From a bacterium (GTDB lineage: Bacteria; UBA6262; WVXT01): a stretch of DNA of 45,091 nt. Location: contig JBHIBS010000014.1 of assembly GCA_046759165.1 (NCBI GenBank), positions 1 through 45,091 of the forward strand. The letters run 5' to 3'. The notes below the pieces were generated by a model. The model saw only the letters and a list, made by a program, of their open reading frames with translations, did no database searches and was not told the DNA's origin. Below, piece after piece: positions 1,598-34,034 of this stretch. The translations under genes and the position numbers were made by a program. Within the stretch, counting starts at the first letter, position 1. Every line of letters starts with the position of its first letter.

Positions 1598-1598
1598 C

Positions 1599-2420: not shown

Positions 2421-2499
2421 GCCGAAATTGATGCCCATAGATGTTCGGACGACCGTCCGCTTGGGCGGGGGAATCACCGCTCGCGTCCACTCTTTATGA

Positions 2500-4808: not shown

Positions 4809-6925
4809 AAAGTGTAAAGTGTAAAGTTACCATAACTTTTCTCTCTCGCATTACACTTTACGCACTGTTGGTGCCTTCCTATATAGTCTTTGTGGCTATT
4901 TTTTCATTTTGTCAATCTGCCACAGCTTACCTTCCTGAAGGGAAAGAACCCTATATAAGTTTATCCAGCACCTATGTAGTTGTTGGGAGGAGTTCTGAAT
5001 TAGGGCCCGTCCAGGATAACCCGATTATTCTTTCAGCCGAGTACATTGAGTATACAAGAGAAGGGAATAAGGTCTTAGCCCGTGGTAATGTTAAGATAGA
5101 AGATAGGGATGTTATCGTGGAATGTGATGAAGCTATTTTCGACTTGGAAGAGGAGAAAATCGAAGCAAAAGGCGAAATCATTCTTCAAGACAAAGAGACT
5201 ATCATCCATGGCAGTCAAATAATCTACGATTTGAGGACAGGGGGTGGAGTTATAGATAATGCTTCATCATTTATAGAACCCTGGTATGTTTCCGGTGCAA
5301 AGATAGAGAGAGTAAGCGATAAAGAAATTGTTGTACATAATGGCTATATTACTTCCTGTGAACTCTCCCCTCCCCATTATCGGTTGAAAGCAAAAAAAAT
5401 TCGTGTATTACTGGGAGATAGGTTTTACGCATATAATGTCCTGACGTATTTAGGCAAAATTCCCATATTCTATTTCCCTTTCTACTGGCGCTCATTGCGC
5501 GAGAGAAGGTTTAAGTGGGGACTGAAATTGGGCTCCAATCGCGAGGAAGGCTTTTTCGCTAAAGGAAATTTTGGCTATGCCTTCAGTAGCAAGACATACG
5601 GAAGTTTACTCCTCGATTATATGACCAAGAAAGGAGTCGGTTTTGGAGGCAGATATGATTACAATTTGCAGGATAAAGTAAAAGGATTCTTGTACGGATA
5701 TTACATTAAGGAGAAAGATACTGAAGAAAAGAGATGGCGCGGAGAGGCAGAACACTTTCAGAGGTTAGGAAACGACTTCTATTTTCAGACGAAGCTGGAC
5801 TATATGTCCAATCAACAGTTTAATCGGGTATATAATAAAGAAGACTGGATACCAATGAAAGAGGAACTGAAATCTCATATTGCTCTTACACGCTCCAGAC
5901 CCAACTATACTTTGAGGATAGTTGGAGAAAGGAAGGATGTATGGGATTACCAGACTGGGCGATTTGTCAATATTCTGGGCTATTCTCCCAGGCTTTCATT
6001 TGCCACAAATCTTCTCCAAATCAAGAAAGGGCTACTCTATTATAAATTAGGAGCGAACTACGCCAACTGCTATCTTAAACCATACGATTATGTCACCAGA
6101 GAATTTCAGGAAGGTCACCGTCTAAATCAGAGCGAGGTCTATTTTGACTTGGTCAATAAACTGAGGTTGTCACGCAGGGCCAGCATAAATACAGAGGTGG
6201 GTTTTCAAGAAAGTTGGCGAGATAAAGATGAGGACTGGAATAGAAAGAATGTATATAAGAATATATACCACACTCAAACAAACCTACGAACCCGAATTAC
6301 TAGGTCTTTCGATACAGACTTAACGCACAGTTTTCAGCAAGAACAGGGTAAGAAGACGACCCTCAATAAACTTTCGATTTTGGGAAGAATTCGCCTTCTT
6401 TGGCTATTGGAATTTACGTCCTCCACAGGATATAGTTTTATTGGAGAGAGAAATCTTAGATTCGATAACCTTTTGTCCCGGGTCGACTTTACTCCCTCCT
6501 CTTTAGCCAGGTTCTATTTGGAACATAACTACGACTTGAACAGGGAGAGGACGGCTAATTTTCAGACTGAGGCGATATTTGGTCCAGGAGCAAGGAAGTG
6601 GTCAATTAATGCCAGATTGACCTATTTAGAGGGAACTTCTGACTATCCCCATCACCTCGACATCCTAAATGGGTTTATTTTTCCAATTGCCCAGAAATGG
6701 AGGGCTCGACTGACTACCAGATACGATATCTATAATGGTGAGCTTATGGAACGGGGAATTCATCTCTATCGAGACCTCCACTGCTGGGAAGCAAGGTTTA
6801 GCTGGACAAAGATACCTTCCAAGGAAGAGATATGGTTCACGGTTAATTTGAAGGTCTTTCCCGAAGAGAGAATAGGCCTTTACCATAATATTGATGAGGA
6901 AGAGTGGAGACTACGGAGAAAGTAA
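4805..6925 (+). CDS. lptD: LPS-assembly protein LptD-like (OstA-type N-domain plus beta-barrel)
   Basis: N-terminal hydrophobic segment, ARGNV/AKGEI beta-jellyroll repeats, TSC...PHY motif, PIFYFP, C-terminal RDLHCW motif. Confidence 0.8.
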   Translation: MKSVKCKVTITFLSRITLYALLVPSYIVFVAIFSFCQSATAYLPEGKEPYISLSSTYVVVGRSSELGPVQDNPIILSAEYIEYTREGNKVLARGNVKIEDRDVIVECDEAIFDLEEEKIEAKGEIILQDKETIIHGSQIIYDLRTGGGVIDNASSFIEPWYVSGAKIERVSDKEIVVHNGYITSCELSPPHYRLKAKKIRVLLGDRFYAYNVLTYLGKIPIFYFPFYWRSLRERRFKWGLKLGSNREEGFFAKGNFGYAFSSKTYGSLLLDYMTKKGVGFGGRYDYNLQDKVKGFLYGYYIKEKDTEEKRWRGEAEHFQRLGNDFYFQTKLDYMSNQQFNRVYNKEDWIPMKEELKSHIALTRSRPNYTLRIVGERKDVWDYQTGRFVNILGYSPRLSFATNLLQIKKGLLYYKLGANYANCYLKPYDYVTREFQEGHRLNQSEVYFDLVNKLRLSRRASINTEVGFQESWRDKDEDWNRKNVYKNIYHTQTNLRTRITRSFDTDLTHSFQQEQGKKTTLNKLSILGRIRLLWLLEFTSSTGYSFIGERNLRFDNLLSRVDFTPSSLARFYLEHNYDLNRERTANFQTEAIFGPGARKWSINARLTYLEGTSDYPHHLDILNGFIFPIAQKWRARLTTRYDIYNGELMERGIHLYRDLHCWEARFSWTKIPSKEEIWFTVNLKVFPEERIGLYHNIDEEEWRLRRK

Positions 6926-18173: not shown

Positions 18174-21100
18174 CTATTTTGCCAGCACTATCGTTCCGTT
18201 TATAACCTTCCCTCTTGATTCAATCTGGTATATGTAGATTCCACTCCTTGCCATCCTGCCATTCCTGAACCTGCCATCCCATACCAGACTATTTTCATCA
18301 TCTCCCCGTGGAAGATTGTTATACACCAAAGCCCCTGTAATATCAAATATCTTGCCCACAACCGCTTCATCAGGGTCTGTCCCCTCAAAGTAGATCTTTA
18401 CAGTCTTATGAATCCCTTCTCCATAAGGCGTAAATATCTTAGGCCAGACGCTGGTCACCCTGAACCCTCCGGGATTAAATGTCTTCTTTATAGCAAACTT
18501 GCTTAAATGTCTCGTTCTAACTGTTACTGTCTGCCTATCCTTATCTACCTCTCCTCCCAGCTTTATCCATTCAATCCCGTTGAACCAGTAAACTGCCAGC
18601 CTCTTAGGGGCTTCGGAGGCCGGGATACTATCTCCTATCTTTCCATCTTTTACCTGGTAATGGAGGCTAATCTCCGCCCTTCCACCATTAAACTTAAATC
18701 CTTCTATCTCATTTTCACTATCTGCTTTCACTGCCTTGATATCATAACAAGTTATGGTATCACTATCTCTCTCTTCTGTATTTTTTCTTTGCAGAATTAT
18801 CTTTATGTCTTCGTCATACAGATTCCCTTTGTACAGAATTGAATTTATCTCTTTTGACATCTTTTTCTGATTCCTGGCATCATCGTCAGCCACTGCAATT
18901 ACGTTTATGTCTTCGGTAGTATCTACAATCATCGACCCCTTGCTCTCATTGTGGCCGATATCTTCCGCCTTAATTCTGTAATAGTTGACCTGCCCATTAA
19001 CTGCATCCGTTGAGGAGGAGGCATTATTCCCTAGAGATTTTATTGGGATCCACAGCCCTTCAGTTGAAGTCGCCCTGTAGACATTATATCCTTCTACATT
19101 CTCGTTCTCTCCCTTAATATCTTTAGTAACTTTGCTCCAGCTCACCTCAAATATTTTAGAATTCAGAAATCTCCCCTTTATTCCGCAGGGTTCCCTTGGC
19201 TCAACTGTATCAGTAAATTGAAAGACCCATTTGATGTTTCTGCCTGCATCCTCGCTATCAGTAGCTAAGATAGTCTGCCCGCCTGAGGCGTCAGAATCCT
19301 GCGCGTCTACATAGAAGACACTCTGGGTGCCAGTTACGGTTAAATACCAGGCAGTACCTGGACTTGTTGACCTCAGCACTATCCGGCTGGCTATCGCCTG
19401 TCCATTTAGAGTAATGTTTGTCAATGTGGCTGTTGAGCCACCTGTAAAGTAAAGATGGGTATTTGGCGTGGTTGCCGTAAAAGTTGAGCAGGTGAGATTA
19501 TCAGCAAAGTAGACTCCATCAGAAGAGGAATTGGTGATTTCCAATATATTGAGGCTGTTACCATCCATGGTCATGGTCTGGGAGGAACTACCATTCAAAA
19601 CAAAAGTGGAAGAACCAGAATTAAAGTTTCCTCCTGTGACGCTAAAGTCACCATTACAGGTTATTGTCGAACCACCGGCATTAAATATACCGCCAGTTTG
19701 AGAATATGAACCAACTTCTAGCAGTTCTCCATTGGTAGTGAAAGTGCCACCAGCAATCTCAAAAGAACCTGATGTAGTCAGAGAATTTCCCGAATTGATG
19801 GATACTGTGGCAGTATGGGTGGAATAGATGATCACATCCGTGACAGAGGCTTGAATGTCAATATTACAATTTCTCAGCCCAGCACCATCAAAGATGGCCG
19901 TGTCATCGGAATCCGGCACCATAGCTCCTCCTGACCCCCCTGAGCTCGATGACCAGTTGTTACTATCACTCCAGTTCCCTGTTGTAGCAGCTACCCAGTA
20001 CCTATTCTGCGCTCCAAAAACCCAATTCACATTCCTCCCAGCATCATAGCTTGTCCCATCCGTGGCATCGATTGTATTCCCTAACGAAGCATCGCAGTTC
20101 TGTACATCTACATAGGAGACAGATTGATTGCCAGAGACATTCCAACAATACGCTGTGCTTGGACTTGTTGACCTCAGCACAATACGGCTAGATTCCGCCT
20201 GTCCATTTAGAGCAATGTTTGTGAATGTGGCTGTTGAGCCGCTAGTAAAATAGAGGTTTCCATCCCCTGTAGTAGCTGTAAAGGTTAAAGCTGTGACGTT
20301 ATCGCTGAAGGTCACACCGTCAGATGAAGTGTTCTCAATAGTAAGATTATTAAGTGATTGGCCCGATGATGTGATAAAAGCCGGAGTCGTGTATTGGGCA
20401 ATCGTACTGGCAGATACTCCAGCAGCTTGCGTGAATTGTCCTCCAGGAATTAGTTCGTTGTTGTAGACTGTGAGGGCATAAACCTCATCATTCATCCCCG
20501 TGCCTAACGCTGACCAGGAAGAGCCATCCCATTTAGCAATCCGATTAGCAGACCCTCCGCCAGCTTGTGTGAAAACTCCTCCAGCAATTAGTTTTTTGTT
20601 GTGGACGGTGAGGGCGAGAACAGGCAGATTCATCCCTGTGCCTAAGGCTGACCAGGAAGAGCCATTCCATTTAGCAATCCGATTAGAAGACCCTCCGCCA
20701 GCTTGAGTGAAACTTCCTCCAGCAATGAGTTCGTTGTTGTAGACTGTGAGGGCATAAACCGTATCATTCATCCCTGTGCCTAAGCTGGACCAGGAGGAAC
20801 CATTCCATTTAGCAATCTGATTGGCAGACTCTCCGCCAGCTTGAGTGAAACTTCCTCCAGCAATGAGTTCGTTGTTGTAGACTGTGAGGGCATAAACATA
20901 ATCATTCATCCCTGTGCCTAAGGCTGACCAAGAAGAACCATCCCATTTAGCAATCCGATTAGCAGACACTCCGCCAGCTTGAGTAAACCTTCCTCCGGCA
21001 ATGAGTTCGTTGTTATAGACTGTGAGGGCAAGAACAACGTTTTCCATCCCCGTGCCTAAGGCTGACCAGGAAGAACCGTTCCATTTAGCAATGTAGTTAG

Positions 21101-22817
21101 CAGACTCTCCGCCAGCTAGCCAGAACCATCCTCCAGCAATTAGTTCGTTGTTATAGACTGTGAGGGCAAGAACATCACTATCCATCCCCGTGCCTAAGGC
21201 TGACCAGGAGGAGCCATCCCATTTAGCAATCTGATTAGCAGACTCTCCACCAGCTTGTGTGAAATCTCCCCCAGCAATGAGTCCGTTATTGTAAACTGTG
21301 AGGGCATTAACAGGTTGATCCATCCCTGTGCCTAAGGCAGAATAGCCAGAAGTTGTGCCATCCAGTATCACTGTAGAGGGGCCGGCAGTAACTGTACCAC
21401 CTGTAAAATCGATATATCCACCTACATACCAGGTACCTGAACCCATGGATATTGACTCTGTGCCTGCTCCTGTTCCTGCATAATCAATATTTCCTTCTAT
21501 GTCTATGGTGGGATCATAGGTATTGGCATCAACTAAAATATTTCCTACACCATCTGCAGCGAGGAAGAAGTTGCCTGAACAATTGATGGTCTGGGAGCCT
21601 GCTGTGCCTAAGGTGGCTGTGTGGTCTGTAGCGGAGTCATTATAAAACTCTATCCCACCACCATAGGTTCTGGCAGGAACAGTTACATTAGCCGATTCGG
21701 TATGGAACCTGACCTTTGTGCGAAGGGTGCCTGAGGTGCCTAAATTTGCCCCAGCTGAATCTAGCAATTCCAAAGTGCCTGGACCATCCATGGTGCCATT
21801 CAAGGCTGTCAGAGACCCTGCTGCCATCTTCACGGTGTAATTATCTGCAATCTGCAGGGTCTTGCTGGCATCCAGTGTCAAGGTTCCATTTATTGTGACA
21901 TCAGAATTTGCACCAATCGTTCCGGAGATGGTGAGGTTATTCAATGTCTGCCCGGCTCCTGCTAAACCCTTGTTGTTACCGTCCATCACCAGTGTTGAAG
22001 CTCCAGCATTAACCGTTCCACCAGTAAGATTCACATTGCCGCTCACTGTCCAGGTGCCATTGCCCATAGAGATCGATTCAGAACCTGTGCCTGTCCCGGT
22101 ATAATCCACATTGCCAAGAATATTCAACTCAGGATTATTAATAGCTGCAGTTACCGTCAAATTTCCACTTCCCTCAGCCTTGAGTTCAAAGTTGCCATTG
22201 AAGGTTATATTTCCTCCCCCTAAAGTCCATGTCCTGGCTACTGTGCCTGTTGACTGGAAGATTACATTGTTGAATGTATAACCATCACCAGTGAAGGTAG
22301 CGTCGCCATTGGTGGCCTTCAGAATTAAAGTTGAGGAGCCAGTATTGAAAGTACCTCCTGTAACACTGAAGTTACCATTACAGGTTATTGTCGAGCCACC
22401 AGCATTAAATATAGTGCCAGTTTGAGAATAAGAACCAACTTCTAACAGTTCTCCATTGGTAGTGAAAGTCCCACCAGCAATCTCAAAAGAACCTGAAGTG
22501 GTTAGAGAATTTCCCGGATTGATGGATAGTGTGGCTGTATAGGTGGAATAGATGATGACTGAGGCTACTGTGGAGGATATATCAATCTGGCAGGAGTTGG
22601 TGTTTCCCCCATCAAAGATAGCATTATCGCTTGTTCCCGGAACTCCAGCTCCCCCCGATCCTCCAGAAGTATTTGACCAGTTACTCGGGTTATCCCAGTT
22701 AGTTTGCCCTACCCAGTACCTATTTGCTGCTGCGGCTGGTGAAACTGAAAAGACAAAGCTGATGGCTACCAAAAATAACCCTATAAGAATGATTCTCCTA
22801 GCGTTGTAAGACATCAT
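18174..22817 (-). CDS. Large secreted surface protein/adhesin with beta-solenoid-like repeats, 7-blade propeller, FN3-like domain and gliding-motility-associated (T9SS type B-like) C-terminal domain; start ATG 22817/22814
   Basis: Signal peptide ending SPAAAA; G/T/S/N-rich repeats; C-terminus PKIFTPYGEG...IFDITGALV...WDG...SGIYIYQI...GTIVLAK. Confidence 0.82.
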   Translation of the reverse strand: MMSYNARRIILIGLFLVAISFVFSVSPAAAANRYWVGQTNWDNPSNWSNTSGGSGGAGVPGTSDNAIFDGGNTNSCQIDISSTVASVIIYSTYTATLSINPGNSLTTSGSFEIAGGTFTTNGELLEVGSYSQTGTIFNAGGSTITCNGNFSVTGGTFNTGSSTLILKATNGDATFTGDGYTFNNVIFQSTGTVARTWTLGGGNITFNGNFELKAEGSGNLTVTAAINNPELNILGNVDYTGTGTGSESISMGNGTWTVSGNVNLTGGTVNAGASTLVMDGNNKGLAGAGQTLNNLTISGTIGANSDVTINGTLTLDASKTLQIADNYTVKMAAGSLTALNGTMDGPGTLELLDSAGANLGTSGTLRTKVRFHTESANVTVPARTYGGGIEFYNDSATDHTATLGTAGSQTINCSGNFFLAADGVGNILVDANTYDPTIDIEGNIDYAGTGAGTESISMGSGTWYVGGYIDFTGGTVTAGPSTVILDGTTSGYSALGTGMDQPVNALTVYNNGLIAGGDFTQAGGESANQIAKWDGSSWSALGTGMDSDVLALTVYNNELIAGGWFWLAGGESANYIAKWNGSSWSALGTGMENVVLALTVYNNELIAGGRFTQAGGVSANRIAKWDGSSWSALGTGMNDYVYALTVYNNELIAGGSFTQAGGESANQIAKWNGSSWSSLGTGMNDTVYALTVYNNELIAGGSFTQAGGGSSNRIAKWNGSSWSALGTGMNLPVLALTVHNKKLIAGGVFTQAGGGSANRIAKWDGSSWSALGTGMNDEVYALTVYNNELIPGGQFTQAAGVSASTIAQYTTPAFITSSGQSLNNLTIENTSSDGVTFSDNVTALTFTATTGDGNLYFTSGSTATFTNIALNGQAESSRIVLRSTSPSTAYCWNVSGNQSVSYVDVQNCDASLGNTIDATDGTSYDAGRNVNWVFGAQNRYWVAATTGNWSDSNNWSSSSGGSGGAMVPDSDDTAIFDGAGLRNCNIDIQASVTDVIIYSTHTATVSINSGNSLTTSGSFEIAGGTFTTNGELLEVGSYSQTGGIFNAGGSTITCNGDFSVTGGNFNSGSSTFVLNGSSSQTMTMDGNSLNILEITNSSSDGVYFADNLTCSTFTATTPNTHLYFTGGSTATLTNITLNGQAIASRIVLRSTSPGTAWYLTVTGTQSVFYVDAQDSDASGGQTILATDSEDAGRNIKWVFQFTDTVEPREPCGIKGRFLNSKIFEVSWSKVTKDIKGENENVEGYNVYRATSTEGLWIPIKSLGNNASSSTDAVNGQVNYYRIKAEDIGHNESKGSMIVDTTEDINVIAVADDDARNQKKMSKEINSILYKGNLYDEDIKIILQRKNTEERDSDTITCYDIKAVKADSENEIEGFKFNGGRAEISLHYQVKDGKIGDSIPASEAPKRLAVYWFNGIEWIKLGGEVDKDRQTVTVRTRHLSKFAIKKTFNPGGFRVTSVWPKIFTPYGEGIHKTVKIYFEGTDPDEAVVGKIFDITGALVYNNLPRGDDENSLVWDGRFRNGRMARSGIYIYQIESRGKVINGTIVLAK
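20385..21341 (-). repeat. Seven tandem 138-bp (46-aa) intragenic repeats
   Basis: Unit SALGTGMxxxVxALTVYNNELIAGGxFTQAGGxSANxIAKWxGSSW, last copy degenerate. Confidence 0.95.
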
Positions 22818-22820
22818 CAC

Positions 22821-22912
22821 CACCCCCGTTATCCTCTCAGTCTTACTTGCTCGGGCACTCTTCAAATTCCTGTCTTTCTCACCTTCCCCCGTCCCGAAAC
22901 GGGAAACGGCTG
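22821..22912 (-). repeat. Conserved leader sequence, copy A (upstream of adhesin)
   Basis: Aligns with 23262-23360 and 12139-12245; shared core CCCGTCCCGAAAC and TCTTCA, ends in RBS region. Confidence 0.85.
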
Positions 22913-22939
22913 AAAATACCAATTTAATTAGAGTTCTTT

Positions 22940-23944: not shown

Positions 23945-24021
23945 AATTAACCAGAGGCAAGAAATGAAGGTGCGTAAGAGAGAAGGTAAGAGAGGCATAG
24001 TTTATTTACTGGATTGTCGAG
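23945..24021 (+). repeat. 77-bp direct repeat copy 1 = 5' end of an integrase gene
   Basis: 71/77 identical to 28472-28548; encodes MKVRKREGKRGIVYLLD. Confidence 0.9.
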
Positions 24022-24110
24022 CCTACCACGCAGAAAGGTAAAACTGAACTGTCTTGTTGGAACTCCACTATCCCTATTTAGCTTGGATAGGTTCTTAAGG
24101 AGCGATCTTA

Positions 24111-25001
24111 TTATCTTACCTTTGAAACTAACGCCCTATGCTTCTCATAGGCATAGAGTTCGTCCCTCTCAAGATTTCCCTGGTTCAGCTTTACACCAAA
24201 TTTGTCCTCAAAACTTTTCCTCACCGCATTGAGAAATTCATCCATATCCGGCTTTTTACCGGTCGATTCCTCTATCGATGTGAGCGGTTCGATCACCTTA
24301 TCCTTGACCTCGGGAGGAACCCAAATCGCCTGCAAGAATGGGTCGGGATTGAATTTTCCAAGAAAGATAATTGCATTTAAAATATATATATCCTCAATTT
24401 CATAGAAAATAAACCCCCCCATCTTCCTCGTCTCTGAATAGATACTTCCCCGATCTTTATACCATACATCCTTTGCTCCCAGATGGAGGCAGGTCTCCGT
24501 CAGTGTCTCACCTATTTTACGATAGGCATCATCGAGACCTGAAAAAGTATCCTTGGGCAGGATAATTTGAAGGAACCCAGTGCTTTCCGGATCAGCAAAG
24601 GTGAGGGTTCTCTCTCCAGTTGAAATTATATATTCGAGCTGTGGTACCTCCGGTCTAATCTCATTTATAAGAGGAACAAAATTGGAAAGACATAGGATCG
24701 CCCTTGCCCCTGAATCTCGAAGGATATGGATTATCTCCCCCCTTTTGTACATTGTGTTAAAAGGAACGGTAACAGCACCAATTTTCTGACAGGCAAAGAA
24801 GAAGTAAACAAATTCTGGTATATTTGGAAGCATCATAGCCACGCGGTCTTCTTTCTTTATGCCCAGTTGTTTCAGTCCATTGGCAAGGATATTCGCATTT
24901 CTGTTCAGTTCCCGATAGGTTATCTCCTTCCCCTGATAGATAATGGCTACCTGGTTAGAATATTCCTTAGCCCTTTCCTCAATCAATCTTCCCAGATTCA
25001 T
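24111..25001 (-). CDS. Chimeric protein: acyl-CoA synthetase (AMP-binding) N-terminal ~130 aa fused to lipoate-protein-ligase-like C-terminal ~166 aa
   Basis: N: ITYREL, ANGLKQLGIKKEDRVAMMLPN, KIGAVTVP, LRDSGAR; lacks YTSGTTG; C: YRKIG...LG, RKMGG (cf. RKISG), VPPEVKDK, TSIEE..G, F...FG..L..G.L...E. Confidence 0.75.
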   Translation of the reverse strand: MNLGRLIEERAKEYSNQVAIIYQGKEITYRELNRNANILANGLKQLGIKKEDRVAMMLPNIPEFVYFFFACQKIGAVTVPFNTMYKRGEIIHILRDSGARAILCLSNFVPLINEIRPEVPQLEYIISTGERTLTFADPESTGFLQIILPKDTFSGLDDAYRKIGETLTETCLHLGAKDVWYKDRGSIYSETRKMGGFIFYEIEDIYILNAIIFLGKFNPDPFLQAIWVPPEVKDKVIEPLTSIEESTGKKPDMDEFLNAVRKSFEDKFGVKLNQGNLERDELYAYEKHRALVSKVR

Positions 25002-26397
25002 TCCTTTCCTCTATAAACCTTGGATCCTGGTAATCATCACGAAGTTCCTTCCGAAGAACCTTCCCGGTGACGCTTCTTGGCAATATATCCCTGAACTCTA
25101 CATAATCAGGAACTTTACAAGAGGCCAGCCTCTGACGACACCACCCGATTATCTCCCTTTGATTCGATCTTTCCCCTTCCTTCAAAACGACAAATGCTTT
25201 TATCTCTTCCCTCTTCTTGCTCTCCCCAACACCGATCACACATGTTTCCTTCACCTTTGGATAAGAGGAGATGACTTCTTCAACCTCACCGGGAGAAATG
25301 TTGAATCCAGCTTTTATAATGATCTCCTTCTTTCGACCAGTAATGTAGAAATAACCTTCCTCATCTTTATACCCTATATCCCCAGTATGTAGCCATCCGT
25401 TCCTCAATATCTCCTCAGTCTCCTGTGGTCGATTATAGTACCCTTTCATCACAACCTCGCCTCTTATTACAATTTCACCCTCTTTTCCAATGGGAACCTC
25501 CTCATCATTCTCATTAACAACCTTCATCTCAATTCCCGGCGCTGGAGGACCTATTGAGCCAGGCTTTATCCTTTCAGAGGGGTTTGCTGAAACTGCTGCT
25601 GTCGATTCAGTCAGGCCGTATCCCTCGGCAATCTTTGTCGAAAATATCCTCTCAAATTCCTTAATCACATCAAGCGGAAGAGAGGCAGCGCCGGATATTG
25701 ATATACGCAAGGAAAGGAGAGGGGCAGGCTTATGCCTGGCAAGCATGACCAAATGGAGAAACTGGGTGGGTATTGTGATGAGGATTGTAATTTTATCTTC
25801 AGATAGTCTGTTCATAAGTTCCTTTGGGCTATACTGCGGGATGAGAACTATTGAACTCCCCCTGAAGATAGCAACCATCAGGACGTCCGCTAGTCCATAG
25901 ACATGGAAGAATGGGACTACAGCTGCAAACCTGTCTTCCGGTGTAATTGAAAATATCTTCTCAGCGATTGTGTATTCTGCCATGAGGTTGCAATGGGTGA
26001 GCATAACACCTTTCGGTTTTCCGGTCGTCCCGGATGTATACAGGAGGAGAGCTAGGGCGTCCTCTTCCACATCCCCACATTCAAACTCGCTACTCCCTCT
26101 TGATATGAGTTCCTGATAGGAGATTGTGCCAATAATCCTAGCTTCTCCCCTTCCAGAGCGCCCTCTGAGTGCTATATCGATATCAGCCTTCTTAGCCTCT
26201 TCTTTATCTATAATAACATTGGCACCGGCAACGATTCCCCTTCGAGAGACACCCTGTACTATGATTGTGGGAGCGGTAATTTTGGAGGATAGGAGGTATC
26301 TTGAGGCTATCCTTCCCTCAACAATTGATGCCGGAAGAGCAATCAAATCAGCGGCATCTCCCTCTGGCTTATAGAACAATCTCCATTCTCTTTCCAC
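24979..26397 (-). CDS. Chimeric protein: lipoate-protein-ligase-like N-terminal ~85 aa fused to the catalytic core and C-terminus of a long-chain acyl-CoA synthetase
   Basis: N: EWRL, PTI, D.EEAKK..IDIALRGRSG; C: YTSGTTGKPKG, PFFHVYG, EGYGLTE, VMKGYY, WLHTGDIG, GRKKE, PRSVTGKV. Confidence 0.8.
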   Translation of the reverse strand: MEREWRLFYKPEGDAADLIALPASIVEGRIASRYLLSSKITAPTIIVQGVSRRGIVAGANVIIDKEEAKKADIDIALRGRSGRGEARIIGTISYQELISRGSSEFECGDVEEDALALLLYTSGTTGKPKGVMLTHCNLMAEYTIAEKIFSITPEDRFAAVVPFFHVYGLADVLMVAIFRGSSIVLIPQYSPKELMNRLSEDKITILITIPTQFLHLVMLARHKPAPLLSLRISISGAASLPLDVIKEFERIFSTKIAEGYGLTESTAAVSANPSERIKPGSIGPPAPGIEMKVVNENDEEVPIGKEGEIVIRGEVVMKGYYNRPQETEEILRNGWLHTGDIGYKDEEGYFYITGRKKEIIIKAGFNISPGEVEEVISSYPKVKETCVIGVGESKKREEIKAFVVLKEGERSNQREIIGWCRQRLASCKVPDYVEFRDILPRSVTGKVLRKELRDDYQDPRFIEERNESGKID

Positions 26398-26413
26398 AAA
26401 AATTTCCTTTTTC

Positions 26414-27916
26414 CTATGCTTGGGCAGAGAGGTAGTCTTCTACTTCATCAAAAAATCTTCTCTTTATCTCATCGGTTGGTGGAGGAGTGCAAAGACTTAC
26501 TATTACATAGAGTAACATATTTAATAACATTGTGGGGATTATAGGATGGAGGCCGAGGAGAATCGGCTGATAGAGGAATCCACCAACTAAATACAACGTT
26601 CCAAAAATAGCCCCGGCAAGAGCCCCCTCTCTCGTTGCTCTCTTCCAGAGAATTCCACCAACAAGTGCCGGTCCCCACTGGGCAAATCCAGGGACAGCCA
26701 CCCTGGTAAGATAAAGGGCAAGGGCCATCTTCTGCCACAGGGCAATCCCGAGGCTGAGGATAATAATACCGATAACCGCCCCCTTAGTCCACCTGATGAG
26801 TTGGCGGTCAGTCGCCTGGCGTTTAAAGAGACCATATATGAGATCCCTTGAGACGAATATGCTTGCCGTCATCAACTGGATGGCAGCAGTTGATATGGCG
26901 GCAGCGATAACGCCCATCAGAACAAAGACAGAGAACCAACCTGGAAGGTAACGGGTAACTATAACCTGAACAACATTATCGGCCTCCTTGCCTATAAGAG
27001 GGGGTACGAGTGTTCCAGACATATGACTGATCGCCGGAGCGATCAGGGAACCCCAGAGAAATGGGATTGTATAGAATCCAATTCCTCCAAAGAGAAAAAG
27101 GAGCAACGGAAACCATTTGAAGAGCACTTTCCCCCTTGCCGTCATTATTCCTATAACGATATGAGGCCATGAGAATGCCATCAGGCCCACAATCAATGTT
27201 CCCCCCAATGTAACTGTGGTGAAGAAGCCTTCTGGCCCTGGCGTGGTAAGTAGTTCTGGTTTGTTGCTCAAGAGGATATTTGCTGCCTCTGAAAGTCCAC
27301 CAGGAAAGACTATTCTTATTACCCAGATGAGTGAACCGAGAAAGGCTGTTGAATAGACGATGCCTAAAAAGATATTCACCCACGCCGATATTCTCATCCC
27401 GCCAAGAAGAACAATAATGATCAAAAGGGATACTGTATAAATGGCACCGACAATTACTGGGAGGCCGGTGAGGGCATTGAATCCAATGCCAACGCCTAAG
27501 GGCTGGATTCCTATATAAGGGATAATGGAAGCAAGAAGGATAATAGCAAATAATCCCCTCAGGGTCTTTGATTCGTATCTTTCAGATAACGCTTCAATTG
27601 GAGAGAGGAATCGGTTCAAACGGCAGAGGGCCCAGAAGCGTGGACCGATGAACATATAGAGAGCGGCAAACCCAGCCACACATCCCCAGACAAAATAGAC
27701 ATAACCGGGGCCATGCCGATAGAGAAATCCTGGATAACCGTAAAATGTCCATGCACTTGAGACGGCAAAGAGAACGAAAAAAAACATAATTGTAATTCCT
27801 ATTCCCCGACCGGCAAGGAAATAGTCCTCAGCAGTCTTTGCCGAAATTTTGTATCCATAGACCGCCATGCACATCACAATTAAACCAAAAATAGCAAGGA
27901 CAATAATCTCCATCAT
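26414..27916 (-). CDS. Sodium:solute symporter (SSS family)
   Basis: DYFLAGR, SAWTFYGYPG, GGMR..AW, AAAIST, W..ATREGALAG; ~13 hydrophobic segments. Confidence 0.92.
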   Translation of the reverse strand: MMEIIVLAIFGLIVMCMAVYGYKISAKTAEDYFLAGRGIGITIMFFFVLFAVSSAWTFYGYPGFLYRHGPGYVYFVWGCVAGFAALYMFIGPRFWALCRLNRFLSPIEALSERYESKTLRGLFAIILLASIIPYIGIQPLGVGIGFNALTGLPVIVGAIYTVSLLIIIVLLGGMRISAWVNIFLGIVYSTAFLGSLIWVIRIVFPGGLSEAANILLSNKPELLTTPGPEGFFTTVTLGGTLIVGLMAFSWPHIVIGIMTARGKVLFKWFPLLLFLFGGIGFYTIPFLWGSLIAPAISHMSGTLVPPLIGKEADNVVQVIVTRYLPGWFSVFVLMGVIAAAISTAAIQLMTASIFVSRDLIYGLFKRQATDRQLIRWTKGAVIGIIILSLGIALWQKMALALYLTRVAVPGFAQWGPALVGGILWKRATREGALAGAIFGTLYLVGGFLYQPILLGLHPIIPTMLLNMLLYVIVSLCTPPPTDEIKRRFFDEVEDYLSAQA

Positions 27917-27920: not shown

Positions 27921-28136
27921 TCACCGTCTGAATGGCCAGTATCTGAAAAAGTATATCAGATAAGCCACGATCCATATAATTACGAATATCAGGCCAGCAA
28001 GATATGGCAAGGTCATCCACCCGAATATAAGAATCTCCTTCCCAAAATACCTGCTTACGTAAATAAGGCCGATTATTGAAATGAAAAGGATGAGGAGAAA
28101 TATCCTCCCCGGACGATGACTGAAGATTTCCCTCAC
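27921..28136 (-). CDS. Small two-TM membrane protein accompanying the SSS transporter
   Basis: 71 aa, two hydrophobic helices, GGAGGA RBS 8 nt before GTG; canonical position before SSS genes. Confidence 0.75.
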   Translation of the reverse strand: MREIFSHRPGRIFLLILFISIIGLIYVSRYFGKEILIFGWMTLPYLAGLIFVIIWIVAYLIYFFRYWPFRR

Positions 28137-28548: not shown

Positions 28549-28864
28549 TGAATGGTTACAGGAAAGTTGAATCCCTGGGCAGGATAATAAAGAAAAAAGC
28601 AGACCTTATTAAGGCCCAGAGACAAAAGGAGATTGCTGAGGGTTAAAACCAATTATAATTGTGGCAGTCTTTACTGGGATGAGAAAGGGGGAAGTCCCAA
28701 ATTTAGAATGGAGTAACATCAAGTTAGATCTGCGTTTGTTCTACGTAGAACATACTAAAAGCAATAGAATTCGTGAAATTCCAATAGCCGGTCCTGTTAG
28801 AGAAATTCTCTGGAATTCAATAAAGAAATGTAACAGCGAATTACCGGTTGTAAAAAACGATTAA
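28491..28864 (+). pseudogene. Tyrosine integrase pseudogene (arm-binding fragment fused out of frame to a partial catalytic domain)
   Basis: 28491-28646 MKVRKR...YLLDYRVNGYRKVESLG; other frame from 28643 LKPIIIVAVFTGMRKGE..NLEW...TKSNRIREIPI; core-binding domain and HxxR/Tyr missing; next to tRNA. Confidence 0.85.
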
Positions 28865-29126: not shown

Positions 29127-31661
29127 ATGGATAGAAAACTAATTAAATATTGCGATATAATAATAGAATTTGGCTTACCAATTTTAGCTTTCCTTATTGC
29201 TCTGTCTTTCTATCTGAAGACCTACGATTCATGTCAGGTAAAAATTACACTTCTACATATTGGTGCTACAATTATTATAGCAGCGTGGATTGTCAAGGCA
29301 ATTGAAAAGGGAAAGCTACTGGGGAGTAAAGAACAGCGCCTATACGCAGTTCCTGCTCTCTTTTTCCTCCTTTCTGGTATTATTTCTTTCTCCATTTCCC
29401 CATTCAAATTTACCAGTTTCGAGGAGCTTACTAGGAGAGTTCTGTATGTAGGAATTTTTCTGATCGCTCTAATTGAATTTGACAGTTCCGAAAAAGTAAA
29501 TAGAATGTTCCGCTGGATACTCGCTGCCACTTTTATCGCTGTTTTCTATGGTTTGGTTCAATTCATGGACTTGGATCCCTTTATTTGGAGGGGAGTTTTT
29601 GGGGATAGAATATTTTCCACTTTTGGCAATCCCAACTTCTTTGCAGCATTCCTGGTACTCGTTACTCCTTTAATTCTAACATTTTTCGATTTTTCCGACT
29701 TGGAAAAAGCTAAAAGGACAATTGTCTCTTTGGTTCTAGTGGCAGCCATTGGTATCCTCTACTGTTTTATGCAATTTTTGGGAAAGGAAGGACTCATGCG
29801 AATGGGAAGTTTGGGAGCTGCAGCCTTTCTCTTCTTTGTTGAAAATAAGACCTATGCTTTCTTCTTTCTACTTCTCTTTTCCTTATGCTTAATGGTGTTA
29901 TTGAAAATGAAGTCCAGAAAGTTTCTGATTCTCTTTCTGTTTATCGTTCTCGTTAATGTCCTCATGACCAGAACCAAAGCTGCTTACATCGGGTTTGCAG
30001 CGGGAACCTGCTTTTTTGCAATCGTGACCACGCTGTTTATTGTTCCAGCCACAAAAAAGCAGAAGAAAGCTTTCCTAGCGTGTTTCTTATCAGTAGTGCT
30101 CCTGGGTACTCTCTTTGGAGTAGTTTTCCTTCTGCGACAGCGAATAGACTCGGTACGTTTCCGGGTCTTCACCTGGCTTTCCACTTTGGAAATGATTAGA
30201 GATTACCCTGAGGAAGGCACGGGTCTTGAGGCTACGGCTAAAAGGGAACTAATTCACAAATTTCTGGGAACAGGAATTGGCACTTTCAAAATAGTCTATC
30301 CAGCTTTCAGGCGTCCCGAGATATTCCATATTGAGGGAAAGCATAATACCGAGACAGACCATCCAGAAAATGAGTTCATCGAGGTCTGGTACGATGAGGG
30401 GATAGTTGGACTGGGGATATTTCTCTGGCTCCTGATGGTATTCTTTTACACTGGAACGAAGAGGTTAAAGCAAGTTACCAGCCATTCGGCGCAAGGTCCC
30501 CCTTCTCCCAAGAATTCTCGGTTTAATCCTCACTCTAAGAAGGGTTCAAAATTCAAGATCGGCTATCTGCCAGATAAGTTTACAAGACGCCAATATCTAC
30601 TTCTTGGCTTGCTCTCGGGTCTGTTTGGACTTCTGGTGCACAACACCATGGGTGTGAATATGAGATTTGTATCTTCGGGTTTCGTTTTCTGGCTTTTCCT
30701 GGGACTGCTTGGTGGTCAGATACTGGGTGAGAAGGAGAAGGATAACGCGAGTTTGGAAGGTAATAGGAGGTCTAAGTTTCCAGTTAATGTTCGCTCCCGA
30801 AGGATAATCCAGACCTTAGTTATAATTCTCGCTTTGTTTCTGGTCTTCTTCTTCAGGCGATTCTTTATAGCGGATATCCACCACAACAAGGCTATTGCTT
30901 ACTCCAAAGCCAGTATGTGGGAGAATGCTTTAAAGGAGTATCAGACTGTTTTGAGAAATAACCCTTATTATGCAATGACTCACTACTTTATGGGCAATGT
31001 CTACAACGATAGATGGGATATGAGGAGAGTTTACAACCCGCGCTGGGATTCTGTAGACCTGCGACAGAAATATTTCTTTCCTTTCATCCATAAATTGTTG
31101 AATGGGACAGAAGAGGAGGACCAAAAGCCGCGCACTGATGCTGAAAGGGCGCTGGCGAAGTATGCCGATTTAAAGAAGCTGGCTCCCCACTATGTACAGG
31201 TTCACTTTCAGGAAGGAATAGTCTATACTAAGTTGGGCGAGTGGGATAAGGCTATAGAAGATTTCGAGAAGGCTTTAGTTCTCGACCCTGTATATGCTCC
31301 GAGCTATTTCAAGATGGGCTGGTGCTATGTTCAGAAGAAAGAATGGGCGAAAGCAGAGGAGGTTTACCAGAAGGCTGTAGAATGGAATCCAAAGTTTGGT
31401 CAGGCATATATAAATTTAGGCAATGTCTATTTTATGCAGACCAAGTTCAGAGAGGCTGAAAATTGTTATAAGAAGGCAGTGGAGCTGAACGATTCTGACA
31501 TTAGTGCCCACAGGAGTCTTGCTGCTTTCTACTGGAATGTAAAAAGATACGATTTAGCCCTGAAAGAATGGGAAAAGATATTAGAGTTGAATCCTGAAGA
31601 TAAACAGGCAAAATCTATAATTGAACAGGTGAAGGGTGAGAAGCTAAGAGTCGGAGATTAA
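29127..31661 (+). CDS. O-antigen ligase/Wzy_C-family membrane protein with C-terminal TPRs
   Basis: Multiple TM helices, STFGNPNF, T.TKAAY, R..TW, G.GIGTF, HPENE..E...GIVG; TPR repeats at C-terminus. Confidence 0.85.
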   Translation: MDRKLIKYCDIIIEFGLPILAFLIALSFYLKTYDSCQVKITLLHIGATIIIAAWIVKAIEKGKLLGSKEQRLYAVPALFFLLSGIISFSISPFKFTSFEELTRRVLYVGIFLIALIEFDSSEKVNRMFRWILAATFIAVFYGLVQFMDLDPFIWRGVFGDRIFSTFGNPNFFAAFLVLVTPLILTFFDFSDLEKAKRTIVSLVLVAAIGILYCFMQFLGKEGLMRMGSLGAAAFLFFVENKTYAFFFLLLFSLCLMVLLKMKSRKFLILFLFIVLVNVLMTRTKAAYIGFAAGTCFFAIVTTLFIVPATKKQKKAFLACFLSVVLLGTLFGVVFLLRQRIDSVRFRVFTWLSTLEMIRDYPEEGTGLEATAKRELIHKFLGTGIGTFKIVYPAFRRPEIFHIEGKHNTETDHPENEFIEVWYDEGIVGLGIFLWLLMVFFYTGTKRLKQVTSHSAQGPPSPKNSRFNPHSKKGSKFKIGYLPDKFTRRQYLLLGLLSGLFGLLVHNTMGVNMRFVSSGFVFWLFLGLLGGQILGEKEKDNASLEGNRRSKFPVNVRSRRIIQTLVIILALFLVFFFRRFFIADIHHNKAIAYSKASMWENALKEYQTVLRNNPYYAMTHYFMGNVYNDRWDMRRVYNPRWDSVDLRQKYFFPFIHKLLNGTEEEDQKPRTDAERALAKYADLKKLAPHYVQVHFQEGIVYTKLGEWDKAIEDFEKALVLDPVYAPSYFKMGWCYVQKKEWAKAEEVYQKAVEWNPKFGQAYINLGNVYFMQTKFREAENCYKKAVELNDSDISAHRSLAAFYWNVKRYDLALKEWEKILELNPEDKQAKSIIEQVKGEKLRVGD

Positions 31662-31680: not shown

Positions 31681-31719
31681 CGCCAGCCTGCCAGCATTCG
31701 TGGCGAGTGGCGGTTTTTT
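31681..31719 (+). terminator. GC-rich hairpin with T-tract between the two ligase-like genes
   Basis: CGCCA...TGGCG stem followed by G and T6. Confidence 0.45.
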
Positions 31720-31730
31720 CTATTATAGAA

Positions 31731-34034
31731 ATGGAATTCGATCGCATAATAAAATATATTTTTTTTCTTCTCCTTTTAATTTGTCCTCTAATCTTTCTTA
31801 CCAATACTACTCGCAATCCTTATATAATACAAGGCGTAGTGTTTGGGATTAGTCTATCTGTGATTTTGGCTATCTGGCTGATAAAGAGTAATCTTAGACG
31901 GCAGATCATTTTACCCAGAACATACCTCGACAAACCCCTTTTATTCTTCTTTTTGGTCTCATTCCTTTCGGTCGCTTATTCGTTCTCCATTCATCCGGAA
32001 ATGAAACTGGCTATCCTTTCCTTTGGTGGGAGAAACCTCCTATTCTTATTTCTCAATTGCATAGCGGTCTTTTATATAACTGTCCACCTCCTGCGCGATG
32101 AAAGAAATCTTAACAGGTTACTCTATATTGCCTTTGCAGTGGGAACGCTTGCCTCTTTGTATGCAATACTTCAGTATGAAGGGATTGAACCCATATGGCC
32201 AATGAAAATAGAGCCCTTCGGCACTCGCAGCGTTTCCACCTTTGGCAACCCCAATTTCTTGGCAAGTTTTCTGATTCTAATTTTGCCTGTGATAGCGATT
32301 CTGGCTGTTTATGAAAAGTCTCTCATAAAGAAGCTCTTTTTAGGCGGACTTTTTGGAGTTAATTTCCTTGGACTGATGGTGACCCGCACTCGCAGCGCTT
32401 GGCTGGGGCTTTTTGTGGCTTCGATTTTCGTTGCGTTCTTTTTGGTCTCTTACCAGGTCTCTCTAATTTCGAGGAATAGAAAGTGGTTAATCTTTCTGGC
32501 GAGTCTTCTGTTTCTGATGATGCTCTATCCTGTAAGGGTCGAACGACAAGGGCAGAGGAAAGTTATGGTTGTGAAGCTTGCTATTGAGAAGGTTAAGAGC
32601 TTTACCGATCTTAAACAGATGGCCTATGTTCAGAGATTTCTAATCTGGCAGGCAGCCTATCCCATGTTTAAGGAAAGCCCACTTTTAGGCCATGGCTGGG
32701 GAAATTTTGAGATTATCTATCCATTTCATCAGGCGAAGTATCTGAAGATAAAGAAGTATTCTCCTTTTCGCACCCATGCCAACAATGCTCATAATGAAAT
32801 ATTAGAGATAGCTTCCCAAACGGGGATTGTGGGGCTGGGAATATATGTTTGGTTATTCGTCCTCTTTTTTAAAGTAGGAATAGATAGTTACAGGAAGCTT
32901 AGTACTGAGTATGATAAGATTGTTGTTTTGGGGCTTTTGGCAAGCATTTTTGGAATGCTGGTCGACAATTTGTTGAATGTTTCTTTGCATTTCCCAATGC
33001 CTGCCCTTCTCTTCTGGATATGGATGGGATTGGCAGTGGGAATATGCCAGAGAAGGGGGATGCCGGAACGCAGGATTTCCATTAAAAAATTTCTTGTTTA
33101 TCCGATAAATGTTCTCTCTGGAATAATTATTTTTGGAATTATTCTCTTTAATCTTAAGTATTTCCGAGGGGAGATCCACTATTTTAAGGGTTTTAAGTAC
33201 GCAAAAAATAACACTACGCTGGGAAATGCAGTTAAGGAGTGCGAGCTGTCCTATAGGATTTATCCTCTAAATGTGGACAATAACTATGAACTGGGGAACG
33301 CTTATGCTCGCCTAGACGAGAAGGAGAAAGCTATTTGGGCTTACCTTAAAGCAATAGAAGCAAACCCTGGCTACGACGAGATATACTCAAATTTAGGAAT
33401 TATGTATGGAGAGACCGGAAGAATACCAGAGGCCATTGAAGCTCTAAGTAAATCAATTGAGATAAATCCTCTTTCGGTCCCTACGCGCTCCTACCTCGCA
33501 CAGATGCATATTAGAAGAGGGGAATGGGAGAAAGCTGCTAACCAATATCGAGAAATATTAGACCTTGAACCCGAAAATTCGAAAGCTAAAGCGAATCTTT
33601 CCTTTATCCAGGCACAGATGGAAGGGAAACATCCTCTTCGTGCACAGACACAGGAAATCAAACTTCTGTTTGAGAAAGGGGAAAAGTATATAAAGAATAG
33701 AGATTGGAATAAAGCACAAGAGACTTATGGAAAGATTGTAGAGCTTGCCCCCAGAAACATAAAGGCAAACCTCTATTTGGGTAATGTATATTTTAGCCAG
33801 AGTAAGATAGAGGAAGCTATCAATCAATATCAGAAGATAATCGAACTCTCTCCGACATTCAATATCGGGATTCATAATAACCTCGGTCTTGCCTATCTGG
33901 AATTGAAAAAGGTCAATCTGGCGAGAGAAGAGTTCCGGAAAGTTTTGAAAGTTGATCCTGGAAACGAATTGGCCATCAGGAAGTTGAGACAGATAGATTC
34001 TGGGCTTGGAGAGAGTCAAAAGAGGATACCTTGA
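31731..34034 (+). CDS. O-antigen ligase/Wzy_C-family membrane protein with C-terminal TPRs (paralog; ATG 31731 preferred)
   Basis: STFGNPNF, TRTRSAW, RFLIW, P.LGHGWGNF, AHNEILE...TGIVG; TPR repeats. Confidence 0.87.
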   Translation: MEFDRIIKYIFFLLLLICPLIFLTNTTRNPYIIQGVVFGISLSVILAIWLIKSNLRRQIILPRTYLDKPLLFFFLVSFLSVAYSFSIHPEMKLAILSFGGRNLLFLFLNCIAVFYITVHLLRDERNLNRLLYIAFAVGTLASLYAILQYEGIEPIWPMKIEPFGTRSVSTFGNPNFLASFLILILPVIAILAVYEKSLIKKLFLGGLFGVNFLGLMVTRTRSAWLGLFVASIFVAFFLVSYQVSLISRNRKWLIFLASLLFLMMLYPVRVERQGQRKVMVVKLAIEKVKSFTDLKQMAYVQRFLIWQAAYPMFKESPLLGHGWGNFEIIYPFHQAKYLKIKKYSPFRTHANNAHNEILEIASQTGIVGLGIYVWLFVLFFKVGIDSYRKLSTEYDKIVVLGLLASIFGMLVDNLLNVSLHFPMPALLFWIWMGLAVGICQRRGMPERRISIKKFLVYPINVLSGIIIFGIILFNLKYFRGEIHYFKGFKYAKNNTTLGNAVKECELSYRIYPLNVDNNYELGNAYARLDEKEKAIWAYLKAIEANPGYDEIYSNLGIMYGETGRIPEAIEALSKSIEINPLSVPTRSYLAQMHIRRGEWEKAANQYREILDLEPENSKAKANLSFIQAQMEGKHPLRAQTQEIKLLFEKGEKYIKNRDWNKAQETYGKIVELAPRNIKANLYLGNVYFSQSKIEEAINQYQKIIELSPTFNIGIHNNLGLAYLELKKVNLAREEFRKVLKVDPGNELAIRKLRQIDSGLGESQKRIP

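Follow-up and report, generated by a model that had tools for sequence, protein, structure and literature searches.

Gene pair and its four segments

Can two neighbouring genes trade halves, so that each protein starts as one enzyme and ends as another and each chain supplies what its partner lacks? The question is raised by two overlapping genes, here called A and B, on the − strand of contig JBHIBS010000014.1. This contig, analysed at its full length of 45,091 nucleotides (the window), is one of the 165 contigs of a 1.88-Mb, 92% complete metagenome-assembled genome (G000). An earlier note, based on the letters alone, had read gene A as the start of a lipoate-protein ligase (LplA) joined to an ANL acyl-CoA synthetase lacking its first part, and gene B as that first part joined to the remainder of the ligase. 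Our analysis confirmed that the two genes have exchanged parts reciprocally, each fold being cut at one point only: A consists of LplA-N followed by ANL-C, and B of ANL-N followed by LplA-C.

Gene A (26397-24979, − strand, 472 aa) starts with GTG at position 26397, 7 nt downstream of an AGGA sequence. Gene B (25001-24111, − strand, 296 aa) starts with ATG at position 25001, directly after GAGGAAAGGA and inside the last codons of A; the end of A and the start of B overlap by 23 nt (24979..25001), and the ribosome-binding site of B lies within A's last codons. Both open reading frames were found intact and preceded by ribosome-binding sites (AGGA for A, GAGGAAAGGA for B), as had been claimed. 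In gene A, residues 1 to ~85 (26143..26397, − strand) correspond to the first third of an LplA-like catalytic domain and close with an altered loop, RGRSGRG; residues ~86-472 with the stop codon (24979..26142, − strand) hold the ANL core, which begins shortly ahead of the P-loop and runs through the mobile C-terminal domain to the enzyme's natural end. In gene B, residues 1 to ~131 (24609..25001, − strand) are the natural N-terminus and first subdomain of the ANL fold, and residues ~132-296 with the stop codon (24111..24608, − strand) supply the last two thirds of the LplA-like domain, in which one lysine, Lys193, is invariant. Swapping the halves back gives ~518 aa for the ANL enzyme and ~250 aa for the LplA-like domain, in agreement with the sums made earlier.

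Acyl-CoA synthetase halves

The core motifs of ANL enzymes are the P-loop (T/S)SGTTGxPKG, GYGxTE, TGD, the hinge RxK(D/E) and the C-terminal catalytic lysine. Gene A had been said to hold all of them, and it does, in the forms YTSGTTGKPKG, EGYGLTE, HTGDIG, GRKKEIIIKAG and TGKVLRKEL. All are invariant or near-invariant in an alignment of 45 A homologues, in which Y120, T121, G123, T124, G126, P128, K129, G130, G261, T263, E264, G339, D340, the hinge residues R355/K357 and the C-terminal Lys446 do not vary.

The ANL start missing from A is supplied by B. Residues 8-125 of B match positions 2-127 of the Pfam AMP-binding profile (PF00501), residues 57-321 of A match positions 92-384 of its 384 positions, and the latter match is followed by AMP-binding_C (PF13193). 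On the NCBIfam model PRK06187 (531 positions), B 1-134 takes positions 8-141 and A 89-458 takes positions 146-524. The same division was seen with BLASTP against an ordinary ANL protein of 531 aa (L004): B 6-126 aligned with residues 20-140 (45% identity, E-value 3e-30) and A 90-456 with residues 149-515 (39% identity, E-value 6e-88). The two pieces are therefore consecutive on L004 without overlap, with only 8 loop residues between them, ~30 residues before the P-loop. Ordinary ANL proteins of related genomes align to A from residue 84-117 onward only. The N-terminal ANL domain is thus not one continuous chain, its first ~131-141 residues being encoded in B and the rest in A. Neither chain alone attains the curated NCBIfam cut-off for a full-length ANL protein; a match to the whole fold needs both. 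The model of B superposes, over residues 1-129, on residues 2-135 of FadD13 with a Z-score of 15.5 and a root-mean-square deviation (rmsd) of 1.6.

The closest solved relatives of the ANL part are CoA ligases (8weu/8wev, the malonyl-CoA synthetase 4fuq and an oxalyl-CoA synthetase; E-values down to 4e-68). Judged by these nearest relatives, the rebuilt ANL enzyme would be an ordinary member of the CoA-ligase branch, with a putative acyl-CoA-forming activity. As a separate observation, the ESM Atlas holds clusters of 136-aa stand-alone 'AMP-binding' proteins, mostly from Bacteroidota and scoring 0.86, which may represent another kind of split ANL N-terminal piece.

LplA-like halves

The larger LplA-like piece was recognized directly. 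Residues 144-265 of B match positions 77-200 of the 200 positions of the Pfam family LplA-B_cat (PF21948) with 28.5 bits, the cut-off being 27. With hhalign, B 127-290 was placed on columns 79-246 of an alignment of eight ordinary LplA domains (probability 97.4%, E-value 1.3e-11). With BLASTP, B 137-289 aligned with residues 85-242 of an unsplit LplA-family protein of 365 aa (P0081; 35% identity, E-value 4e-26). Foldseek searches with the model of B were swamped by ANL chains; matches to biotin/lipoate protein ligases emerged from a VIA search over all representatives. In that search, residues 130-273 of the model matched the biotin ligase 6ndl (Z 12.7, rmsd 2.7, 128 residues aligned), 1wnl (Z 12.5) and residues 71-210 of the 210 residues of the LipB structure 2qht (Z 12.4). 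The LplA-C profile, run against PDB sequences, returned LipB 2qhs only (E-value 0.29). Lys193 of B aligns with the invariant lysine of the eight ordinary LplA domains and is itself invariant in sets of 21 and 45 homologues; its counterpart is the catalytic lysine, Lys133 of E. coli LplA. Other residues of this piece that are invariant in the 45 homologues are P138, G164, Y181, G185, E231, E238, P239, E281, Y285 and K287.

For the N-terminal piece of A, hhalign of the 45 homologues against the same eight domains placed A 2-85 on columns 5-85 (probability 88.9%, E-value 2.4e-6), and the alignment stops on the R.TGGGAV loop of LplA. BLASTP aligned A 1-78 with residues 1-75 of P0081 (30% identity, E-value 3e-10). 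Both LplA-like pieces therefore lie on P0081, where they skip only residues 76-84, nine residues that make up the glycine loop. Folded alone, the piece gave a mean predicted local distance difference test score (pLDDT) of 83.9, with the order beta-alpha-beta-beta-alpha-beta. In a fold search among 48,161 chains, members of the LplA/LipB family were 8 of the 12 best matches (2qht, 4tvw, 2ars, 5t8u, 5iby, 2p5i, 6jom and 3a7u), each aligned over 77-91 residues from about chain residue 1, and the unrelated chains among the 12 aligned over at most 50 residues. A hidden Markov model of the piece gave only a chance-level match among PDB sequences. R6, D17 and G58 are invariant in it.

All four segments thus carry the families predicted for them, and the two non-ANL segments match the biotin/lipoate protein ligase fold. 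The LplA likeness of the first ~85 residues of A stands on hhalign, the BLASTP alignment to P0081, the fold of the lone piece and the complex model described below, and that of the remainder of B on PF21948, hhalign, BLASTP, fold and the invariant Lys193. Among the LplA-like motifs named earlier, the conserved lysine was recovered, whereas the RRxSGGG-type loop was found to be replaced.

Predicted pairing of the two chains

The complex of A and B was predicted three times and gave interface scores (ipSAE) of 0.82, 0.83 and 0.82, the best of three controls reaching 0.00. The mark set for the tool was reached by 58 of 80 solved complexes and by 2 of 110 mismatched pairs; the input here consisted of our own alignments with 45 sequences per chain, so that this calibration holds only roughly. 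The models contain 476-487 contacts, with a partner pLDDT of 85-86. Residues 2-94 of A contact residues 124-149 and 198-294 of B, and residues 97-188 of A contact residues 1-113 of B. In the model these contacts correspond to those of two folds, each rebuilt from both chains. The lowest predicted errors belong to cross-chain strand pairings, namely A 182-185 with B 18-22, A 116-118 with B 77-79 and A 44-48 with B 143-147. Folded alone, B formed two unconnected lobes (predicted template modelling score, pTM, 0.49).

It had been proposed that the two proteins form an obligate heterodimer. The complex prediction supports this (0.82 versus 0.00), and the model makes it very probable that A and B are an obligate, doubly interlocked pair, with the standing of a predicted complex.

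Distribution of the pair

Among 41 related genomes, full-length B was found in two, G000 and G005. The latter belongs to another genus of the same family; its B is 85% identical to that of the window, and A lies upstream with the same 23-nt overlap. Beyond these genomes, the LplA-C part was sought in a large protein collection, where 64 of 391 candidates proved to contain it. Nearly all of these are ~295 aa long and carry PF00501 together with PF21948. The databases name the family 'AMP-binding protein' or 'long-chain acyl-CoA synthetase' only, and the names of the Atlas clusters are generic. A search of species-representative genomes yielded 393 candidate stretches, of which 343 encode a B relative; 80 of these loci were kept, and the locus counts given here rest on them.

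An upstream frame on the same strand is present in 79 of the 80 loci and ends between −47 and +212 nt from the start of the B match; A and B never form one frame, and most other loci have an overlap of only 4 nt or none. Residues 1-88 of A were matched in 74 of the 79 upstream frames, with E-values of 1.7e-17 to 1.6e-31, one copy cut by a contig end giving 2e-8. The same split pair with the same breakpoints, which the earlier note suggested looking for, was thus found in 74 of 79 other loci. Three of the five loci without this match are cut by contig ends; the other two (L029 and L030) are aberrant and are discussed below. The carriers among the loci kept are mostly Spirochaetota and Desulfobacterota ('Deltaproteobacteria'); further carriers are Fibrobacterota/Chitinivibrionales, WOR-3, a metagenome-assembled genome labelled Kuenenia, Syntrophomonadaceae and a metagenome-assembled genome labelled Gammaproteobacteria. 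One cultured isolate, Alkalispirochaeta alkalica DSM 8900 (L073), carries the pair. The arrangement is therefore widespread and conserved in many anaerobic bacteria and is not an oddity of one genome.

No fused, single-chain form was found in the loci examined or among longer proteins, the latter being weak evidence. When the LplA-C profile was read against 1.84 billion representatives, 103 proteins matched at an E-value of at most 0.001, the longest having at most 541 aa. After the family itself and its fragments, the next matches were proteins of 350-390 aa, aligned from about residue 85 onward (P0081, 3.3e-29; P0085, 2e-24). By annotation only, both clusters consist of lipoate-protein ligase family proteins, that of P0081 from Freyarchaeota/Jordarchaeia and that of P0085 from Sulfolobaceae. 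PF21948 was present in all 10 of the unsplit relatives scanned and Lip_prot_lig_C in five of them (two above the 24-bit cut-off and three below).

Genomic context and host lipoylation genes

Four genes are tightly packed on the − strand and constitute the module: a small hydrophobic protein of 71 aa (27921..28136), a sodium:solute symporter of the SSF family (26414..27916, 500 aa), A and B. The symporter matches the complete PF00474 profile (residues 32-439 on positions 1-406 of 406, E-value 3.1e-25) and ends 16 nt from gene A. Of 72 upstream neighbours scanned, the one in the window among them, 62 are SSF symporters, with an identity to the window symporter of mostly 56-72%. The 71-aa protein, for which neither a Pfam nor an NCBIfam family was matched, has homologues (phmmer E-values of 3.5e-12 to 2.3e-32) that precede the symporter in 58 of the 79 loci. 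No downstream partner is conserved (the commonest family, Smr, occurs in 5 of 70), and the conserved neighbours include no carrier, GcvH or lipoyl-domain gene.

In the window the module is flanked by a 1582-aa secreted repeat protein and by a 67-aa integrase fragment. The former (18174-22922, − strand) has about ten tandem repeats of ~35 residues (..YNNELIAGG.F..AGG..AN.IAKW.GS.WS.LGTGM..), with weak matches to the DUF5122 beta-propeller family and a CHU_C type IX secretion signal of 22.5 bits, under the 27-bit cut-off; in G005 a different, fn3-rich CHU_C protein occupies its place. Two adjacent large proteins on the + strand (29127-31661 and 31707-34034) share one layout, an O-antigen-ligase (Wzy_C) membrane domain together with an array of tetratricopeptide repeats at the C-terminus. 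Elsewhere, one Alkalispirochaeta chromosome carries the whole module twice, at ~1.10 Mb and ~2.34 Mb (L063 and L084), which suggests paralogues with different substrates.

The lipoylation genes of G000 form a cluster away from the module (contig C16, 18622-22882), comprising LipA (18622-19500), a LipB-type octanoyltransferase (19526-20101) and a 102-aa frame with a biotin/lipoyl domain (22664-22882). In total, G000 has LipA, a LipB-type gene and three biotin/lipoyl-domain proteins; Pfam models detected neither GcvH nor E2 in this genome (92% complete), and GcvH was likewise not found in G005. LipA was present in five of five pair-holding genomes tested and GcvH also in the four from other lineages. 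Canonical LplA/LipB-type genes were found in four of five other pair-holding genomes searched; they lie away from the module, beside gcvH in all four and also beside lipA in two. In the fifth (G042, the genome of L030), the copy of B was the only LplA/LipB-type gene found. The host LplA was considered as a source of the pair's LplA part and rejected: the 354-aa LplA encoded beside gcvH in G041 is not similar to it (E-values of 1.7 and 50).

Favoured interpretation and points against it

The explanation that we favour, and consider probable as a whole, is that of an interlocked heterodimer that activates a carboxylate brought in by the symporter. Pairing of the chains would restore the ANL enzyme and the LplA-like domain in full, joined by two crossing linkers, and neither fold could form from one chain. 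The symporter would import a carboxylic acid, which the rebuilt ANL enzyme would adenylate before passing the acyl group to CoA. The LplA-like domain would act as an interlock or clamp and probably also as a second ligand site, the latter being proposed because the catalytic lysine is kept. The analysis established which fold each segment belongs to, where the breaks lie, and that the pair is conserved, under selection and linked to the symporter; the reaction, the class of substrate and the role of the LplA-like domain are all inferred. Chances are about even that the pair is a plain CoA ligase whose LplA-like domain transfers nothing.

Several observations weigh against this interpretation. 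(i) Pfam found no LplA match on the first ~88 residues of A, alone or in the 45 homologues, and the fold matches of this piece have low Z-scores (3.0-3.8), which are weak taken alone. (ii) The glycine loop of LplA, RRxxGGGxV(F/Y)HD, whose R, G and G are invariant in the eight ordinary LplA domains, is not kept: the motif RRxxGGGxVxHD is replaced by PRxGRxGA in A (RGRSGRGEA in the window) and TGERTLTFxDP in B. (iii) The accessory domain of the closest unsplit relatives is absent from the pair; B ends ~50 residues past the catalytic domain with no match to PF10437, a separate LplB gene not having been searched for. (iv) The symporter reaches no curated cut-off and scores far below even those of its nearest NCBIfam models, panF and PutP (panF, 108.6 against a cut-off of 328). 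(v) Binding of A to B has the standing of model confidence, and the complex model may have passed partly because monomeric ANL and LplA structures similar to each half-fold have been solved and could be known to the predictor. (vi) In L029 (positions 1281-4004; Deltaproteobacteria bacterium RBG_13_52_11), a 907-aa frame fuses symporter residues 1-492 in frame to A 91-463, so that LplA-N is absent, with B intact downstream; this fusion may be a genuine variant, or it may reflect a deletion or faulty assembly. In L030 (positions 3546-4882; a 1.09-Mb 'chromosome' record) only the last ~150 residues of A precede an intact B, in what looks like a decaying or rearranged copy. Either the pairing is not kept everywhere or these two copies are broken.

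According to PMC7253636, a C-terminal accessory domain or a separate LplB is required for the synthesis of lipoyl-AMP. With the glycine loop replaced and the accessory domain absent, canonical LplA chemistry is therefore doubtful, and 'transferase' is an unproven name for the LplA-like half. Since neither the glycine loop nor the accessory domain was found on testing, the pair is classed here as an ANL acyl-activating enzyme architecture and not as a lipoate-protein ligase.

Alternative explanations

The alternative that survives best is a two-site relay. The ANL enzyme would make an acyl-AMP, with which the LplA-like half would acylate a lysine of a protein, or some other amine. Lipoate, octanoate or a different acid may be the substrate, and in bacteria the pair would correspond, in physically fused form, to the mammalian route from ACSM1 to LIPT1, which begins with an SSF-family vitamin transporter. 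It would be unusual for a scaffold to keep the catalytic lysine of the LplA fold in 45 of 45 homologues along with many neighbouring residues, and the ANL enzyme is inserted exactly at the glycine loop of the LplA active site; the accessory domain, on which adenylation by LplA-type ligases depends, is absent. The best curated match of the symporter is panF, though below the cut-off, and the pair-holding genomes tested have LipA throughout and, in the four other lineages, GcvH. There is also a precedent, since ACSM1, an ANL protein, is named in PMC5828627 as the lipoate-activating enzyme that makes lipoyl-AMP for LIPT1; in PMC7253636, LIPT1 is described as an LplA homologue unable to adenylate, a 'half ligase', and the physiological role of ACSM1/LIPT1 as disputed. 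However, the GGG loop is replaced, the ANL half resembles an ordinary CoA ligase, and the conserved neighbours offer no lipoyl-domain, GcvH or carrier gene. The LplA of G041 is no relative of the pair's LplA part. Against lipoate as the acid in particular, four of the five other pair-holding genomes already have canonical LplA/LipB-type genes, placed beside gcvH and not beside the module, and neither GcvH nor E2 was found in G000. On this balance we regard the relay as unlikely, and we are equally doubtful of its central step, the handing over of an adenylate across the shared junction from the ANL to the LplA-like half.

It is considerably less likely that A and B do not pair, each acting alone or with other partners, for example as a truncated ANL enzyme needing no first subdomain. 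L029 without LplA-N and L030 without most of A, both with B intact, would fit this, as would the purely predicted nature of the binding. However, in 74 of the 79 loci A and B lie next to each other or overlap, their pieces are exactly complementary on both folds, the cross-chain strand pairings have the lowest predicted errors, and B alone gives two lobes that do not connect.

A recent rearrangement that left two decaying pseudogenes with frames open by chance is highly improbable for the family, even though it may apply to individual copies such as the one in L030. It would agree with the integrase fragment 0.5 kb upstream of the module, with the truncated A at one locus elsewhere and with the pair's presence in just two of the nine genomes of its taxonomic family. 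However, 74 loci have unbroken homologous frames, 42-57% identical, and the catalytic motifs are invariant. The ratio of nonsynonymous to synonymous substitution rates (dN/dS) against G005 was 0.27 for LplA-N, 0.17 for ANL-C, 0.09 for ANL-N and 0.23 for LplA-C, and all four segments are under purifying selection. The junction residues are also among the best conserved (R80, G82 and R83 in A; T128, G129 and R131 in B).

Finally, wrong joining of ordinary ANL and LplA genes during metagenome assembly, which the fragmented state of G000 (165 contigs) might suggest and nothing else does, can be practically dismissed: 74 further loci, drawn from many assemblies and phyla and with the isolate A. alkalica DSM 8900 among them, have the same architecture, as do the 85% identical G005 ortholog and a protein family known from several public sources, and contigs of three other studies bridge both junctions (one of 4558 nt spans positions 24000-26500 with 46 differences, no indel and no joint, and shorter contigs from two other runs bridge each internal junction), so that independent assemblies show the split pair and not the two ordinary genes that a misassembly would have concealed. 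Among the data sets listed as containing this DNA, none was of RNA.

Origin of the exchange

The order of the segments in the mRNA is LplA-N, ANL-C, ANL-N, LplA-C. The natural end of the ANL enzyme therefore abuts its own natural start, and the site at which the ANL enzyme is inserted is exactly the glycine loop of the LplA active site. This order probably arose when an LplA gene underwent one reciprocal crossover with an ANL gene that was circular or repeated in tandem, with the crossover points in an ANL surface loop ~30 residues before the P-loop and in the LplA glycine loop. A single crossover is favoured because two independent events would be unlikely to strike the same ANL position. Nothing convincing in the way of DNA-level microhomology was found at the junctions.

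Another trace was considered at the A/B overlap. A 19-nt imperfect direct repeat (84%; 24972-24990 and 25003-25021) encodes RLIEER at the start of B and RFIEER in the tail of A. Its reading as a relic of an ancestral single chain was dropped for a simpler one, the placement of B's ribosome-binding site in the last codons of A; most other loci have the 4-nt overlap or none. The motif D.RLIE of the A tail is kept family-wide, probably since it carries that site (GAGGA).

The integrase remnant mentioned above (28661-28864, + strand, 67 aa) covers positions 31-86 of the 172 positions of a phage-integrase family (E-value 6.7e-9) and sits upstream of the module at a distance of ~0.5 kb. This remnant and the presence of the pair in only two of nine genomes of the taxonomic family fit gain of the module by transfer and hint that the module arrived in this way.

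Implications

In this pair, textbook enzyme folds, each of them discontinuous, would be shared by two polypeptides in an arrangement that is stable across several bacterial phyla. For protein evolution, it would mean that one reciprocal crossover of unrelated genes can yield a viable product that selection keeps, and it would offer a natural 'split-and-swap' design for obligate heterodimers. For enzymology, the placement of an adenylating enzyme at the active-site loop of a transferase fold that uses acyl-AMP, with the lysine kept, raises the possibility of adenylate hand-over; a relay of this kind, if true, would be a third bacterial route of lipoyl-type or other protein acylation, mirroring ACSM1-LIPT1. 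For annotation, several hundred genomes name these genes as ordinary or partial enzymes, and such names conceal the LplA-like domain as well as the requirement for a second chain. The cultured carrier A. alkalica DSM 8900 makes bench work feasible.

Comparison with known systems

In the literature that we could search (subscription journals and supplementary files lying outside its scope), no description of the arrangement was found. To our knowledge this would be the first natural case in which two enzyme folds are split and cross-fused such that the assembly of one enzyme would enforce that of the other, and we know of no case of two enzyme folds reciprocally exchanged between two chains with both discontinuous. 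Among solved structures none belongs to the family: PDB matches cover the ANL parts only and, among the best 60 of the 197 chains matching B, none extends past ANL-N.

With the ANL acyl-CoA synthetases (the feruloyl/fatty-acyl-CoA enzymes 8weu/8wev, 4fuq, 6qjz and Mycobacterium tuberculosis FadD13, 3r44) the pair shares the core motifs, both domains and the total of ~518 aa. It differs from them in that the fold is divided over two polypeptides, each piece fused to a piece of another enzyme, with the C-terminal part encoded first. Interrupted adenylation domains of non-ribosomal peptide synthetases are relatives in kind. Compared with domain insertion, circular permutation and simple split genes, the locus reads as an LplA gene carrying a circularly permuted ANL enzyme in its loop, the whole being cut into two chains at the natural termini of the ANL enzyme.

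For the LplA-like pieces, the closest relatives are the unsplit archaeal LplA-family proteins and unnamed metagenome relatives, which share the motifs WRLI.., WYK..G, K..G and PPEK..DK...TS. The archaeal proteins are single chains with an intact GGG loop, whereas the pair has the ANL enzyme in the place of that loop and no accessory domain. The bipartite lipoate ligase LplA/LplB of Thermoplasma acidophilum (structure 2ars, among the fold matches of the N-terminal piece of A) likewise has an LplA-type domain that depends on a second polypeptide. In that ligase, however, the catalytic domain is whole and the partner is a small accessory domain, whereas in the pair it is the catalytic domain that is divided, and the second polypeptide brings an ANL enzyme with it. 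ACSM1 and LIPT1 would be a parallel in chemistry, as an ANL enzyme and a non-adenylating LplA-like protein that work in series; these are separate, complete proteins without interleaving, whereas in A and B each chain holds a part of both folds.

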